A stretch of DNA of 6,480 bases from the IMG/VR virus record IMGVR_UViG_2740892268_000008. The stretch is one strand, 5' to 3'. A program made the translations under genes and the position numbers. The notes beneath the pieces are model-generated. The model was not told the DNA's origin and searched no databases. It saw nothing but the letters and a program-made list of their open reading frames with translations. This document shows positions 534 through 6,480 of the stretch, one piece after another (position 1 is the first letter of the stretch; each line of letters begins with the position of its first letter). Origin of the DNA: a virus (lineage: Duplodnaviria; Heunggongvirae; Uroviricota; Caudoviricetes).

Positions 534-610
534 TGGACCGCCATCGGGGACTTGAACCCCGCGCAGCCAGCTTCGAAGGCTGGCGCTCTTTCCTGATGAG
601 CTAATGGCGG
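534..610 (-). tRNA. tRNA-Arg, anticodon UCG as read from the sequence
   Basis: 77-nt minus-strand cloverleaf: acceptor CCGCCAT/ATGGCGG, D stem GCTC/GAGC, anticodon stem CCAGC/GCTGG with loop CTTCGAA, T arm CGGGG-TTCAAGT-CCCCG, discriminator T and encoded CCA. Confidence 0.8.
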
Positions 611-617
611 TATGTGA

Positions 618-693
618 TGGTGGCCCTTGCTGGATTTGAACCAGCGACCTGGCGATTATGAGTCGCTCGCTCTCACCACTGAGCTAAAGGGCC
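618..693 (-). tRNA. ileZ: tRNA with anticodon CAU, tRNA-Ile2 (lysidine) type rather than Met
   Basis: 76-nt minus-strand cloverleaf GGCCCTT...AAGGGCC-A-CCA with anticodon loop CTCATAA and T loop TTCAAAT. The anticodon arm GCGACTCATAATCGC matches what I recall of E. coli tRNA-Ile2 (ileX), and Stx-type lambdoid phages carry an ileZ-arg-arg tRNA trio. The symbol is from memory, not a search. Confidence 0.8.
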
Positions 694-2374: not shown

Positions 2375-3196
2375 TTACCTAGTTACCTTTTTTAACTGCC
2401 GCTCAGCCCATGCTTCTTCAATATCAAACCGGGTCACCAGCGCATCATAAAATTTCTTAACTGTTTTTTCCCATGACGCGCGTGTTATCTGGTTTGTCAC
2501 CTCGCATATAGCATTAAATGCCTCCGTTGATGGTAGTCTTTCATAGCCACGACCACCACAACGCTGGCAGTCTCTGATAACAGGCATACCACGTTTTACC
2601 GACTCTTCACGATGAATGGCGACACCACGCCCACGGCAATCCTTACAGGCGGTGGAAACCTCACCCTTTCCGCCACACTCCGGACAGGCAACTTTTACCA
2701 CCTCCCTGACTTTTTTCCATTCTTCCCAGTAAGACGGATACACACCTTTCGTACACTTTGCCCATACCGGCGGCTTACCATCCGGATACTGGATCTTGTT
2801 TGTAAAAACCTCGCTTTCAATAAATTTTTTTCCGTGACAGCAGGGGCACTGTTTTTTGCTCGCCGCGCTACGGGCATAATCTTCAAACGCATACGAAGCC
2901 ATAATACGCATCACTGCCGGTTTTATTTCTGCCGGGAGTTTTCTTAACGCCGCCACGCGATCACACCGACTGAGTGCATATTCTGTCAGCAATTCTGTTG
3001 CCCGCTCTCTGTCATTCATACTAATGCCCATTTTCCCAAGGAACGCAGAAACCCCCATCTCAGCCCGATTCTGTGTCATGCCCTGCGCGGCCATCACATC
3101 AGTGATACTCAGCGCATCTTTCGACGTTGAGGCCGATGCATCAGTCAGGCCGGGGGATTTTGGGGAGTAGTATTTCGGTAAATCTTCCAGTTTCAT
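2375..3196 (-). CDS. Late-gene antitermination protein Q-like (QuuQ/Antiterm-type, 273 aa) with four CxxCxGxG zinc-binding repeats
   Basis: Sits directly downstream of rusA with an ATGA start/stop overlap and directly upstream of a promoter plus intrinsic terminator. Carries CPCCHGKK, CPECGGKG, CKDCRGRG and CQRCGGRG motifs. Family assigned from context and motifs, not a search. Confidence 0.65.
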   Translation of the reverse strand: MKLEDLPKYYSPKSPGLTDASASTSKDALSITDVMAAQGMTQNRAEMGVSAFLGKMGISMNDRERATELLTEYALSRCDRVAALRKLPAEIKPAVMRIMASYAFEDYARSAASKKQCPCCHGKKFIESEVFTNKIQYPDGKPPVWAKCTKGVYPSYWEEWKKVREVVKVACPECGGKGEVSTACKDCRGRGVAIHREESVKRGMPVIRDCQRCGGRGYERLPSTEAFNAICEVTNQITRASWEKTVKKFYDALVTRFDIEEAWAERQLKKVTR

Positions 3197-3570
3197 TTTT
3201 TGACCTGCCCTTCAAGCATTATGGGATAAATCTTCACCCCCAGACGTCCACCAGATACTGGCTGAGCACGAACGATATTGATTTCATCAAACTGCTCATC
3301 GTCCATTAGCAACCCCGCATGCGTCAGCGCATCCAGCGGCGCTTTCAGAATATTGTCCAGGTCACGGCGGCGCTTATCCGGTGGTTCTGCAATAATTTTT
3401 ATTGCCAACCTTCCGGACAGGCTTAATTTCAGCCGCTGCTGGCGAACAATAAGCGCCACTGCCCGGCGANNNNNNNNNNNNNNNNNNNNNNNNNNNNNNN
3501 NNNNNNNNNNNNNNNNNNNNNNNNNNNNNNNNNNNNNNNNNNNNNNNNNNNNNNNNNNNNNNNNNNNNNN
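3193..3570 (-). CDS. rusA: Crossover junction endodeoxyribonuclease RusA (Holliday junction resolvase); N-terminus masked
   Basis: Visible C-terminal 88 aa contain PDKRRRDLDNILKAPLDALTHAGLLMDDEQ, matching the RusA catalytic region ([30 protein letters not shown] in E. coli RusA, from memory). The frame stays open into the N block; the 5' end is estimated from a ~120-aa RusA length. Confidence 0.8.
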   Translation of the reverse strand, partial: XXXXXXXXXXXXXXXXXXXXXXXXXXXXXXXXXXRRAVALIVRQQRLKLSLSGRLAIKIIAEPPDKRRRDLDNILKAPLDALTHAGLLMDDEQFDEINIVRAQPVSGGRLGVKIYPIMLEGQVKK

Positions 3571-3571
3571 N

Positions 3572-4640
3572 NNNNNNNNNNNNNNNNNNNNNNNNNNNNN
3601 NNNNNNNNNNNNNNNNNNNNNNNNNNNNNNNNNNNNNNNNNNNNNNNNNNNNNNNNNNNNNNNNNNNNNNNNNNNNNNNNNNNNNNNNNNNNNNNNNNNN
3701 NNNNNNNNNNNNNNNNNNNNNNNNNNNNNAAATCATCAGCCTTTGTTCCCATCCCTCCCAGTCCATGACCAATGATGTGATGCGGATCATCTGCCTGATT
3801 GCCACACGTCATGCATTTCTGCGTTTTTACCCAGCGCGTGTATACAGGCATCTCTTCCCGTTGTGATTTCTGGCGCTGGAGATACTGAGCCGGTGACTCC
3901 GGATCAACGGCAATGCTGACCACCGTCTTTTCCTGTGGTGGGTTCTGTTGCTGGTGGACGTGAGGCAGTAACGCAATATTTTTTGTGCGCTGCTTCAGTA
4001 TGCTGGTGGCTGTCTGCTCTCCCGGTATGATGTCGCTTTCACTGTACACAGAGCGAATTTTTTCCGCACGCAACCCCAGCGAACGACGTAATACCGCTTC
4101 CGGTAGCGCGTCCGCCACCTGATTGCGGACCGCCCACCAGGATAATTCAGCCAGAGATAATTCACGCTCCTGCGTACCGCTTATTGCGTGACCGATGACG
4201 TCAATCATCCATGCTGACAGGTTTTGATGAGCAAGTTGCTCGAGTGATTCGGATGTCTGGTCACGCAGCTGGTTGTCGCAGTGCCAGCACAACACCATTG
4301 CGCCGGTACCATAACGGTGAATGACGGTTTCGCTGTGATGATAATCGCCGTGTGGCCACTGGCAGGATTTAATATGGCGCAACAGCCAGTCAGACAATGC
4401 ACCAGCACCACCAGCAGCACGAATCACCCGTGCGTTACTGAAAAACGGCAGCAATGTTTTGTCTTCCACCAGCGGCTGGCGAGCGGCAGGAACGACCCCG
4501 GACGGCAGATTACGCATGCTTTTTGGTTCCGGCTCCACCAGTATTCTGCCGTTATGGAATGCTGACATTGATTCACGGCCTGGCTTAACGATAACCAGAC
4601 CGAGTTCCGGTACCAGAACAGGTCGAAGTAATACCCGCAC
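3572..4640 (-). CDS. DUF968/YdfU-like prophage protein with an HNH-like CxxC...HH motif; 3' end masked
   Basis: Long minus-strand ORF from a GTG at 4640 (GGAGG 4 nt upstream; alternative ATG at 4568) into the N block, sitting just upstream of rusA and Q as YdfU does in Qin-type prophages. CMTCGNQADDPHHIIGHG lies just before the mask. The 3' coordinate is an estimate. Confidence 0.55.
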
Positions 4641-4715: not shown

Positions 4716-4997
4716 TTATCCAGTGACGGTAGTCGAGGCTAAGGGCTTTTTTAACCTCGCATCCGCGCCTGCGGTAACACTGAATGAGCCATTCGGCCTG
4801 TTCTTCAGTGCATGGGGGATGCTGGTACCAATCAGATTTAAATGCGTGAGAGCGCCGCCCGTGCCTGCTGGCAAAGACGGCTGAATTATCAGAATTGTGT
4901 AGTCTGGAAGGCAGTGGCTGACAATAGCGCCATTCTCAACGCGCACAGTATAGAGGCCATCTTCACTAAAAATTTCACGTAATTCTTCGATTTTCAT
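4716..4997 (-). CDS. Hypothetical small protein (93 aa) in the position occupied by rem in Qin-type prophages
   Basis: ORF with GGAAGGA about 8 nt upstream of ATG 4997. It is in the same frame as the downstream DUF968 ORF, separated by one TAA at 4716-4718 and 25 sense codons. Confidence 0.5.
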   Translation of the reverse strand: MKIEELREIFSEDGLYTVRVENGAIVSHCLPDYTILIIQPSLPAGTGGALTHLNLIGTSIPHALKNRPNGSFSVTAGADARLKKPLASTTVTG

Positions 4998-5080
4998 CAA
5001 CAGAATCCTTCCAGATAAATAGCACTCCCCTGTTCGGGGTCCATCCCTCTTCTCCCTGCGCGCTACTTAAGTATTTTTGA

Positions 5081-5217: not shown

Positions 5218-5373
5218 TTACTCCTCAGGTTCGTAAGCTGTGAAGACAGCGACCTCCGTCTGGCCGGTTCGAATTCGTACCTCGCAGAGGTCTTTCCTCG
5301 TTACCAGTGCCGTCACTATGACGGTTAAACAGATGACGATCAGGGCGATTAACATCGCCTTTTGCTGCTTCAT
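5218..5373 (-). CDS. hokD: Hok/Gef-family type I toxin (51 aa small membrane toxin), HokD/RelF-like
   Basis: MKQQKAMLIALIVICLTVIVTALVTRKDLCEVRIRTGQTEVAVFTAYEPEE matches my recollection of HokD/RelF and is unmistakably Hok family. AAGGAG lies 9 nt upstream of ATG 5373. The track's 70-aa ORF is an in-frame upstream extension from ATG 5430. Context differs from K-12 hokD because no relBE lies upstream. Confidence 0.85.
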   Translation of the reverse strand: MKQQKAMLIALIVICLTVIVTALVTRKDLCEVRIRTGQTEVAVFTAYEPEE

Positions 5374-5549
5374 AGCCTGCTTCTCCTTGCCTTTCGGCAC
5401 GTAAGAGGCTAACCTAGATTTGCCGTTCATAGATTGAGCCTCAGATTAATGTTAAGCGTCTTGCCGGACGCGTAATGTTAACTGGGGCTTTTCTCTATCT
5501 GCCTTTTGGTGTTCATGCCTGAGACAGATAGCCTCAAGCACCCGCTGCA

Positions 5550-5577
5550 ATTCTACTTAACTCTCCTTTTCCCGCAA
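5550..5577 (-). promoter_or_regulatory. Sigma70 promoter candidate for the hok mRNA
   Basis: Minus strand TTGCGG (-35, 5572-5577), 16-nt spacer, TAGAAT (-10, 5550-5555). From here to the terminator at ~5120 the transcript would be about 420 nt, the size class of known hok mRNAs. Confidence 0.35.
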
Positions 5578-5584
5578 ACCGTTT

Positions 5585-5668
5585 TTATCCCCAGCGGCAA
5601 ATCGAATACACCACCAGCGCCACCGCCATCGCAATTCCTACCGTTGTTAATGCTTCAGGCCAGGTCAT
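5585..5668 (-). CDS. Small hydrophobic peptide (27 aa, [27 protein letters not shown]), candidate single-pass membrane peptide
   Basis: Absent from the ORF track because it is short. ATG overlaps the stop of the 114-aa gene (ATGA), GGAGGA lies about 10 nt upstream, and the product has a ~17-residue hydrophobic core. Confidence 0.35.
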
Positions 5669-6009
5669 CGTAAAATATCCTCCACGCTTATCAGTCCGTT
5701 CCGCTCCAGATAACTCATCGCCTTATCCGGTAATTTGCAGTCTGGCTTCGCTTTCCTCAGTTGCCAGGTTAACTGCTTTACCAGCATGGTTAACTCATCG
5801 ACCAGACGCTGATATCCCACTGGTTTGTATTCATGCAATTTACCGGCTGGCTCTGCTGCCAGCGATACCAGTGCGATTTCCAGAACAGCAATATCCATCT
5901 TATATGTGCGGATGATGTCATGGTCGATTGTGCCCGGTATGCACAGTCTCTGTGCTTCAATAGTCTCCTCTGCGTGAGCTATTAACTGCTCTCTGGTAAA
6001 AGTCGTCAT
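5665..6009 (-). CDS. Hypothetical protein (114 aa), paralogous at its N-terminus to the upstream 55-aa protein
   Basis: ORF with AAGGGG upstream; ATGA overlap with the 55-aa gene. Shares the N-terminal MTTxTxE and an IALxSLxAEP segment with the 55-aa product. Confidence 0.55.
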
Positions 6010-6173
6010 GCCGTAGCCCCTTCTTGATATTTTTCAAACCAGAACACAACCGGCTCTGCTTCCAGCGATGCCAGCGCAATCCGTGCCAGTTCCATTTGTT
6101 CACCACGGGTAAGCCCGTTTTCAAGCGGGTTTTTAATGAACAATTCAATACGTTCTTTGGTAATAGTGGTCAT
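6006..6173 (-). CDS. Hypothetical small protein (55 aa, [55 protein letters not shown])
   Basis: Not in the ORF track (under 60 aa). Strong AAGGAG 6 nt upstream of ATG 6173; its stop overlaps the start of the 114-aa gene. The track's ORF 5957-6148 is in another frame over the same DNA and is the less likely reading. Confidence 0.5.
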
Positions 6174-6183
6174 GTGTTACTCC

Positions 6184-6414
6184 TTAACCCGCAGTGCTTT
6201 CAACTGATGAGGGGAACAAAATCTTTTCATCAAACCCTGCATTCATATCATGAACAGCAACACACCAATCCATCGACGAACGATTATCAAGAGCCTCCAT
6301 GATTTCATCCATGCGGCGTAGGTCATACAGGTAAATGCTTTTATCGCCAATGGTGTAAAAGCCAATTTTTTTCGGTGATGGATGAGGTGTACTGGCAATA
6401 GCGGACACTACCAT
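6184..6414 (-). CDS. Hypothetical protein (76 aa from ATG 6414), possibly the 3' part of a longer gene starting beyond the right edge
   Basis: ORF from the track. No convincing Shine-Dalgarno before ATG 6414, and the frame has no stop from 6414 to 6480, so the true start may lie outside the window. Its first 11 codons lie inside the right inverted-repeat copy. Confidence 0.4.
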   Translation of the reverse strand: MVVSAIASTPHPSPKKIGFYTIGDKSIYLYDLRRMDEIMEALDNRSSMDWCVAVHDMNAGFDEKILFPSSVESTAG

Positions 6415-6480
6415 TTGTTCTTTTTTTAAGCAGCCATCTGATGATATTTTTCCCTGAAGGCTGCCGGGGAGATATTCCCC
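6383..6480. repeat. Right copy of the 98-bp perfect inverted repeat; partner at 1-98
   Basis: Exact reverse complement of 1-98. Confidence 0.95.

Follow-up and report, generated by a model that had tools for sequence, protein, structure and literature searches.

The DNA analysed here, a 6,480-nt stretch of the IMG/VR virus record IMGVR_UViG_2740892268_000008 (Caudoviricetes) that is called the window throughout, contains on its minus strand a run of four small open reading frames (ORFs) encoding products of 76, 55, 114 and 27 amino acids (aa), and two of these products, the 55-aa and the 114-aa proteins, begin alike. This raises the question of how two neighboring genes came to share their N-termini. 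The original prediction, made by inspection of the sequence alone, had answered it with a tandem duplication in a family that it did not recognize. Our analysis led to a different reading, to which we give a probability of about 0.72: the window would hold a mosaic stretch of early genes, in which EaA-type modules are shuffled via conserved joints and the 55-aa ORF is a recombination stub. The four ORFs, and the parts into which the 55-aa and 114-aa ORFs can be divided, are the following:

6184-6414, minus strand: 76-aa ORF, chimeric, with a start derived from the insertion sequence IS600
6006-6173, minus strand: 55-aa ORF, EaA N-module plus a 14-residue tail
5665-6009, minus strand: 114-aa ORF, N-module plus C-module
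5585-5668, minus strand: 27-aa ORF, predicted membrane-spanning small peptide
6051-6173, minus strand: N-module allele "A1", residues 1-41 of the 55-aa ORF, corresponding to the N-terminus of P22 EaA
5848-6009, minus strand: N-module allele "A2", residues 1-54 of the 114-aa protein, predicted helical hairpin
6051-6080, minus strand: conserved joint at the end of helix 2, ATTGCGCTGGCATCGCTGGAAGCAGAGCCG, inside the 55-aa ORF
6006-6050, minus strand: 14-codon tail and stop of the 55-aa ORF, containing the Shine-Dalgarno and ATGA for the 114-aa gene and forming part of the cassette 5' flank
5665-5814, minus strand: C-module, residues 66-114 of the 114-aa protein, an amphipathic helix and two short helices, containing the Shine-Dalgarno GGAGGA and the ATGA for the 27-aa ORF

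Relationship between the 55-aa and 114-aa proteins

The similarity between the two N-termini proved to be beyond chance. BLASTP aligned the proteins with 18 identities in 54 positions (33%; E=1e-5), and their Smith-Waterman score of 56 compared with 23+/-4 in 2000 shuffles (z=8-9), none of which reached 56. In addition, four PHROG profiles (phrog_660, phrog_60, phrog_5117, and phrog_3323) matched the same N-terminal positions of both. The two flanking motifs on which the original prediction had relied, M-T-T-(I/F)-T-(K/R)-E and (I)AL(A/V)SL(E/A)AEP, are present in both window proteins and are kept in relatives, since the same flanks dominate among 290 proteins bearing the module.

The proposed origin of this similarity did not survive comparison with other proteins. 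Residues 1-41/44 of the 55-aa protein were 86-93% identical (tblastn) to the N-termini of P22 EaA, HK620 hkaE, ZX5, and other EaA/DUF551/DUF550 proteins, and residues 1-54 of the 114-aa protein were 96-100% identical to those of the DUF551 proteins P0064 and P0066 and of P0062. The two copies in the window are thus not the closest relatives of each other, as local duplication would have made them: they are 33% identical mutually versus 86-100% identical to copies on other proteins. Since each module is far closer to copies elsewhere than to its neighbor, local duplication is unsupported, and we conclude that the two N-modules are two versions of a widely shuffled EaA-type module, joined by recombination. 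This also gives the family a name: it is recognizable as the EaA N-terminal module (PHROGs 60, 3323, and 660), which is itself uncharacterized.

The EaA-type N-module and its conserved joints

Membership in the EaA-type N-module family was taken as a significant profile match at the extreme N-terminus, and both window proteins showed one from residue 1: the 55-aa protein with phrog_3323 (E=1e-19) and phrog_60 (E=4e-18), and the 114-aa protein with phrog_5117 (E=3e-9) and phrog_60 (E=1.5e-7). A search with a module profile built from 12 alleles (cut-off E<=1e-3) retrieved at least 2,378 clusters at the 50% identity level, comprising proteins of 55-423 aa in which the match lay nearly always at residues 1-50, the position of the module being checked in the best 150 matches. 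DUF551 was found in 36 of 144 module-bearing proteins scanned, most of the others carrying nothing known behind the module.

Comparison of the 290 module-bearing proteins revealed at least 15 classes of interior (classes sharing <50% identity; interiors 20-43 residues long) between nearly invariant flanks. The commonest flank at the module start was MTTITKE, and the commonest 10-residue form of the end joint occurred in 166 of the 290. At the DNA level, a 23-nt core of the end joint, CTGGCATCGCTGGAAGCAGAGCC, recurs in otherwise unrelated module alleles, and both this core and the start flank of approximately 20 nt, ATGACCACTATTACCAAAGA, are conserved across unrelated alleles at synonymous positions too.

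In the AlphaFold2 (AF2) model of the 114-aa protein, the N-module formed two helices (residues 6-23 and 30-52; predicted local distance difference test, pLDDT, 85-91), that is, the helical hairpin expected of an EaA-type N-module; the copy in the 55-aa protein was modeled at low confidence. From this model we infer that the conserved flanks sit side by side where the hairpin is open, the variable part forming its tip. Foldseek comparison of the 114-aa model with BFVD and PDB gave nothing at E<=0.001, only generic helical hairpins being returned. N-modules also occur in tandem and in frame within single proteins: P0250 and P0335 carry different alleles head to tail, and the second module of P0250 keeps its own methionine (...SLDSGPVA followed by MTTLTRHRLL...). 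The N-module would be a portable family heading P22 EaA, with a predicted hairpin of approximately 41-63 residues. No description of this sub-genic module was found in the literature searched.

Origin of the 55-aa ORF and limits of the mobile unit

The 55-aa ORF consists of the EaA N-module (residues 1-41) followed by a 14-residue tail. A census covered 80 IMG/VR loci that carry a nearly identical 114-aa gene. The gene upstream of it was the 55-aa stub in 56 loci, an HNH endonuclease gene (equivalent to ArgO145 gp11) in 19, and another module allele in four, and the remaining locus had no readable ORF in that position. The same 14-residue tail ended all three kinds of upstream ORF, the HNH endonuclease included (79/80 loci), and P0230 represents a further module allele carrying it. 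Moreover, the profile of an HNH endonuclease family, phrog_2118, matched residues 31-54 of the 55-aa ORF (E=0.002), and because of this match the tail seems to be the 3' end of an HNH gene, as the sequence suggests. In P0017-type loci the upstream slot is occupied by a DUF7167 gene. Since HNH, other-allele or DUF7167 genes replace it upstream, the 55-aa ORF is not an obligatory partner of the 114-aa gene; its replaceability argues against an obligatory role.

Between contexts, ungapped homology was lost 37-38 or 69 nt before the 114-aa gene begins and, on the downstream side, at the 27-aa stop codon. Of 5,426 complete Escherichia coli genomes, 1,823 had partial matches whose ends fell close to the limits inferred for the modules (query positions 84, 151-179, and 472). 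The tail common to different upstream ORFs, together with breakpoints at the start of the tail and at the 27-aa stop, identify tail, 114-aa gene and 27-aa ORF as the mobile unit. Natural recombinants were also found: in P0031 (IALASL/AAEPAGK..., the slash marking the junction) and P0032 the module of the 55-aa ORF runs directly into the C-part of the 114-aa protein, the junction falling within the motif or immediately behind it. Both occupy the same genomic place, with the order 87-aa gene, 10-nt spacer, 101-aa gene, 27-aa ORF, and hok. The same cassette was detected in exo-xis/int-proximal regions as well (ArgO145 and L095), which implies that it moves between PL and PR accessory regions.

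The original prediction had also asked whether the 55-aa and 114-aa genes always travel with hok or with the 27-aa peptide. The 27-aa ORF does travel with the 114-aa gene, the 55-aa ORF accompanies it upstream in the 56 loci mentioned, and the linkage to hok is facultative (hok lay within 1.2 kb downstream in 50 of the 76 loci of the hok census). The claim of a four-gene array with overlapping stop and start codons was correct for two junctions out of three. At the 55/114 junction there is an ATGA overlap, with a Shine-Dalgarno sequence AAGGGG located inside the 55-aa gene 7 nt before the 114-aa ATG, and at the 114/27 junction there is another, with GGAGGA located inside the 114-aa gene 9 nt before the 27-aa ATG. 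The 76-aa and 55-aa ORFs are instead separated by a spacer:

6174-6183, minus strand: 76/55 spacer of 10 nt, TAAGGAGTAACACATG, holding a Shine-Dalgarno AAGGAG that overlaps the TAA stop of the 76-aa ORF

Tight translational coupling of the ORFs in the array is plausible from this arrangement. A scan for promoters and terminators yielded nothing above the expectation from shuffled sequences.

The 114-aa protein and its C-module

The C-terminal part of the 114-aa protein is a second module, which matches phrog_660 (E=8e-43). Its approximately 45 last residues terminate proteins with differing front parts, namely N15 gp45, H19J orf688, ST64B Sb32, SP-016_280, and Rac HP4, and the short form (101-115 aa) of genes of the 114-aa type occurs with at least seven different N-module alleles. 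The description of the C-terminal tail as basic was borne out, although mildly: residues 57-114 have an isoelectric point (pI) of 9.2, with 11 K+R versus 8 D+E, the hairpin having a pI of 4.6. In the AF2 model the hairpin is followed by a disordered linker and by helices at residues 63-87, 95-103, and 109-113; PDB matches of the C-module helix were designed coiled coils only, with weak likeness. The product is therefore predicted to consist of an acidic hairpin that a flexible linker connects to a basic, amphipathic, coiled-coil-like helix, an architecture that suggests a small oligomeric helical accessory protein of adaptor type.

ST64B (L099, 1057-2504) and SP-016 (L100, 1195-2453) each have an EaA-type gene that begins with MTTITKE and is directly coupled, through an ATGA, to a preceding C-module gene of the Ead/Ea22 type. 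In these two phages the end of the C-module and the start of the N-module thus form one conserved inter-gene joint.

The 27-aa ORF

The homology of the cassette ends at the stop codon of the 27-aa ORF, which was intact at approximately 70 of the 80 loci. It also occurs 3' of P0017-, P0065-, and P0031-type genes, in some cases followed directly by a terminator-like GC-rich hairpin and T-run (read by eye). Diverged copies detected by tblastn (63-96% identical; consensus MxWPEAFxxVGxxxAVxxxxYSxCRWG) follow unrelated genes, to which they are coupled through an ATGA: in VT2-Sakai after orf75, beside a gef/hok homologue; in YYZ-2008 and in phage-plasmids of 90-100 kb after DUF551 genes; and in phage 24-2-1 after an EaA gene. 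In L103-L107 the copies lie at 1201-1281. The 27-aa ORF also follows genes without any C-module, and because of this it is an independent module.

Across eight diverged copies, the ratio of non-synonymous to synonymous polymorphism (pN/pS) was 0.37 in the 27-aa frame versus 0.77 and 1.45 in the other forward frames, and start and stop positions were kept. The antisense frame with the same third-codon positions gave a similar ratio, as expected; a plus-strand antisense ORF (5506-5673) was considered as the cause of the conservation and rejected, stops breaking it in five of the six other copies checked. Some copies are damaged, with a stop at codon 3 in POCJ13, an ATG to ATA change in L090, and a few frameshifts. 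Residues 6-24 of the peptide have a mean Kyte-Doolittle hydropathy of 2.16, which fits one membrane span. Taken together, these observations make the 27-aa ORF a conserved gene for a predicted single-pass membrane peptide.

The RefSeq and GenBank records inspected contained no feature for this ORF, a few submitters name the peptide "prophage protein", and in Pfam it gave only a sub-threshold match to DUF883_C (E=0.029). A Hok/Gef-type type I toxin was also considered and discarded: the peptide had no HOK_GEF match, the Rfam sok match in the window belongs to the neighboring hok, and the ORF is ATGA-coupled rather than independently controlled. The protein collection groups 27-aa peptides with DUF551 proteins of 121-185 aa that lack their sequence, which looks like a database artefact and not biology. 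In Actinobacillus phage vB_Apl-pPE4 (L097, 1093-2085; host A. pleuropneumoniae), an EaA-type gene, a 27-aa ORF with one L-to-F change from the window copy, and hok all closely resemble the E. coli versions, with a C-module identity of 89%; this likeness suggests either a recent transfer or a mis-assigned host or sequence.

IS600 and the genomic setting

The first ORF of the array is not an intact gene. Two further features were placed around the cassette:

6383-6480, strand not given: end of IS600 (IS3 family), inserted in the upstream 87-aa gene
5218-5543, minus strand: hok/sok type I toxin-antitoxin locus, a neighbor outside the cassette

A megablast search with positions 6375-6480 matched "IS3-like element IS600 family transposase" at 98-99% identity in 2881 E. 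coli genomes, and in IS-free relatives the homology to the window ends at position 6382. The 76-aa ORF consists of 11 IS600-derived codons (MVVSAIASTPH) and codons 23-87 of an 87-aa prophage gene, 22 native codons being lost; its residues 10-76 match phrog_1714 (E=5e-37). RefSeq relatives are 87 aa long, and P0459 shows the intact N-terminus. The array gene postulated in the original prediction is thus an 87-aa gene cut by IS600, and since IS600 truncates this upstream gene, the insertion separates the array from the prophage early operon in the window genome. The exact 76-aa protein is Shigella sonnei UniProt Q3Z0Y9, present on 832 contigs, and the adjacent S. sonnei locus tags PSZ80_20225, 20220, and 20215 correspond to the exact 76-, 55-, and 114-aa proteins, so that a defective prophage of S. 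sonnei is the probable origin of the window. In P0028 the same IS600 end is joined at a different point of the 114-aa gene.

DNA near-identical to the window is present in thousands of E. coli genomes. In the annotated relative L001 the array lies in the nin-equivalent region, between replication genes (DUF977 and DUF4014) and hokD, DUF968, RusA, and Q, a context that is that of a Qin/Rac-like lambdoid prophage. In RefSeq the 55-aa and 114-aa genes and the 87-aa version of the first gene are annotated as hypothetical proteins and the 27-aa ORF has no annotation; the 55-aa gene, which the ORF list behind the original prediction had missed, is present in public annotation as RefSeq WP_000207997.1. 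Searches of Pfam and NCBIfam gave no match for the 55-, 114-, and 76-aa ORFs, and the PADLOC models of anti-phage defence returned no family at E<=1 for any of the four.

The hok/sok neighbor was identified by Rfam (sok, RF01794, at 5368-5543; 112 bits) and Pfam (HOK_GEF, E=3e-23), and beyond it, downstream, are DUF968, RusA, a Q antiterminator, a DNA methylase, and two tRNAs. Between DUF968 and hok, a 94-aa ORF (4716-5000, minus strand) matches phrog_340 over its first 30 residues only (E=1.3e-7) and is possibly another truncated or mosaic gene. The Q antiterminator (2375-3196, minus strand) matches Pfam Antiterm (E=1.6e-53) and gives a sub-threshold match to a DnaJ-type CXXCXGXG zinc finger (30.1 bits; cut-off 32.7). 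Genes for tRNA-Arg(TCG) and tRNA-Met(CAT) lie at 534-693 (minus strand), past the Q and methylase genes; a tRNA cluster downstream of Q is frequent in lambdoid and Shiga-toxin (Stx) prophages, and the position in the window fits. Runs of N (209-544, 734-1162, approximately 3460-3700, and others) mask parts of the methylase, DUF968/RusA, and neighboring ORFs, so that these genes are incompletely readable.

Proposed explanation and its alternatives

According to the reading that we favor, these genes would be accessory early genes of a defective Qin/Rac-like lambdoid prophage. The joints of approximately 20 and 23 nt, nearly identical between unrelated alleles, would allow homeologous recombination by phage recombinases, and interiors and downstream domains would be exchanged through them. 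An exchange would have taken place between an EaA-type gene, immediately behind its LEAEP joint, and the 3'-terminal part of the gene before the mobile unit, probably an HNH endonuclease gene; its product would be the 55-aa stub, EaA module plus tail. To judge by the Shine-Dalgarno sequence inside each upstream gene and by the ATGA overlaps, the ORFs would be translated polycistronically and in a coupled manner; in the window genome, IS600 has severed the array from its operon. Phage Rad52-like recombinases do recombine short diverged homologies, the minimal exact-pairing segment of Red-beta is 23-27 bp, and intragenic exchanges of approximately 100 bp are common (PMC3945230). The 23-nt core of the joint matches the minimal pairing length of Red-beta.

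Several points weigh against this explanation. The role of the flanks as recombination joints is inferred from a sequence pattern only, and protein-level constraint together with codon bias could equally explain their conservation. Between the two window copies, the longest exact identity in the motif is 8-9 nt, and a direct exchange between them would for this reason be at the level of microhomology. In PDB, sequence queries made with the individual proteins or with profiles of the modules gave no meaningful match and no solved structure. The order of events may be read in either direction, the HNH-linked cassette or the 101-aa single gene having come first. Finally, the pN/pS of the 55-aa ORF was 0.27 (nine synonymous versus eight non-synonymous changes; binomial p=0.007), and no indels occurred in 58 full-length copies, which argues for a maintained ORF rather than a dead stub. 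The variants behind this ratio may have been brought in by recombination from functional alleles elsewhere.

These last values bear directly on the best surviving alternative, which we consider possible though clearly the minor option: that the 55-aa ORF is a non-functional remnant, kept only by the young age of the junction and by the supply of ribosomes that translation of the ORF brings to the overlapping 114-aa start. It is in favor of a remnant that the ORF combines the ends of two genes unrelated to each other, that truncated or frameshifted copies of this module are numerous in databases, and that the prophage is defective (IS600 here, IS421 in relatives). The absence of indels and the low pN/pS are against it, as is the fact that the identical protein forms a 65-member cluster found on at least 1000 contigs.

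A joint proposal in two parts is rather unlikely. In its first part, the N-module would be a diversified specificity cassette, with a variable tip between constant joints, which would let temperate phages change target specificity during an arms race; it might serve, for instance, as decoy for, or inhibitor of, some host or defence factor that is itself polymorphic. In its second, the 27-aa peptide, which PGAP leaves unannotated, would be a functional phage membrane microprotein that stands last in the arrays of Stx phages, of Qin-like prophages, and of P1/SSU5-like phage-plasmids.

More doubtful still is a functional three-part system, in which the hairpins of the 55-aa and 114-aa proteins would form a four-helix bundle, the 27-aa peptide would serve as membrane anchor or partner, and coupled translation would set the stoichiometry. 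The ATGA coupling at 55/114 and 114/27 would suit such a system, as would stand-alone module ORFs with the same tail in at least three alleles, the in-frame double-module proteins P0250 and P0335, the selection signal in the 55-aa ORF (pN/pS 0.27; p=0.007), and the constant position of the 27-aa ORF beside the C-module in the E. coli-type contexts examined. However, the 55-aa ORF is dispensable in many contexts, the 27-aa ORF is also found behind genes without a C-module, and the AF2 model of a natural frameshift fusion of the 55-aa and 114-aa ORFs (P0001) had a mean pLDDT of 50.6 and no confident packing.

Local tandem duplication and divergence, with a C-terminal extension gained later by the 114-aa copy, is very improbable: the genes are adjacent and co-oriented and have N-terminal and motif residues in common, but each module is much closer to those on unrelated proteins (86-100%) than to the other (33%), 23 of the 80 loci have an HNH gene or a different allele in place of the upstream partner, and the 14 residues that close the 55-aa ORF recur in the HNH endonuclease but not in the 114-aa protein.

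Comparison with known systems

Mosaic shuffling of EaA-type modules, as favored here, is an ordinary finding in the sense that it is known lambdoid mosaicism in a named but uncharacterized family whose genes are already hypothetical proteins in RefSeq. It is nevertheless of use in three respects. It shows sub-genic module shuffling cleanly, with at least 15 interior classes between joints conserved to synonymous sites; it provides a worked case of the origin of a chimeric stub ORF (EaA N-module plus HNH tail), and with it a caution against reading adjacent similar ORFs as duplications; and it points to a widely conserved 27-codon gene, absent from the RefSeq annotation inspected and present in Shiga-toxin phages beside hok/gef, as a cheap small-protein candidate.

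The closest known system is P22 EaA (eaa) and the EaA-like/DUF551 proteins of P22-like, HK620-like, and Stx phages. The 55-aa ORF corresponds to residues 1-41 of such proteins, and the P22 EaA type and the 114-aa protein carry N-terminal alleles of one module. EaA-type genes and the window genes alike are non-essential, highly mosaic accessory genes of the early operon. P22 EaA differs in its length of 317 aa, since it adds a middle region, DUF550/MazG-like in our own reading of its sequence rather than by a domain scan, and, at the C-terminus, a region of DUF551 type (GWISCSERMP...HWMQLPDPP), both of which are absent from the window proteins. Membership in DUF551 (PF04448) was rejected, as neither window protein had a Pfam match and DUF551 is found only in N-module relatives. 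Nothing specific on the function of EaA or DUF551 was found in the literature, and the epsilon34 genome paper does not discuss the ea genes.

Lambda Ea22 and P22 Ead (PF13935) occupy the same genomic niche, the exo-xis/ea region, as genes of the window type, and the C-module of the 114-aa protein also terminates the Ead/Ea22-type proteins ST64B Sb32, SP-016_280, and Rac HP4. Ea22-type proteins have mosaic domains, a coiled-coil core, and swappable C-terminal domains that include DUF551 (PMC10834534), and a pro-lysogenic phenotype has been described for Ea22 (PMC10834534; PMC7093339). Membership of the window proteins in Ead/Ea22 was rejected, there being no PF13935 match at E<=1 and the best BLASTP match to lambda Ea22 having E=0.47 over 13 residues; because of this lack of homology, the pro-lysogenic function is not transferable to them.

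Like the 114-aa protein, N15 gp45 combines an EaA-type N-module with this C-module (71% identical). Behind the C-module, at the corresponding ATGA joint, N15 has the annotated gene 45.1 (18 codons; L003, 2135-2191), which bridges to gene 46; its product differs from the 27-aa peptide in being unrelated in sequence and not hydrophobic.

In a broader context, the mosaicism described for lambdoid phages (Martinsohn et al., 2008; De Paepe et al., 2014) involves short diverged homologies, boundaries at or inside genes, and defective prophages as donors (PMC3945230). What distinguishes the present case is that the exchanged unit is sub-genic, a hairpin-coding cassette of approximately 70-130 nt lying between joints of approximately 20-23 nt and occurring in at least 15 classes.

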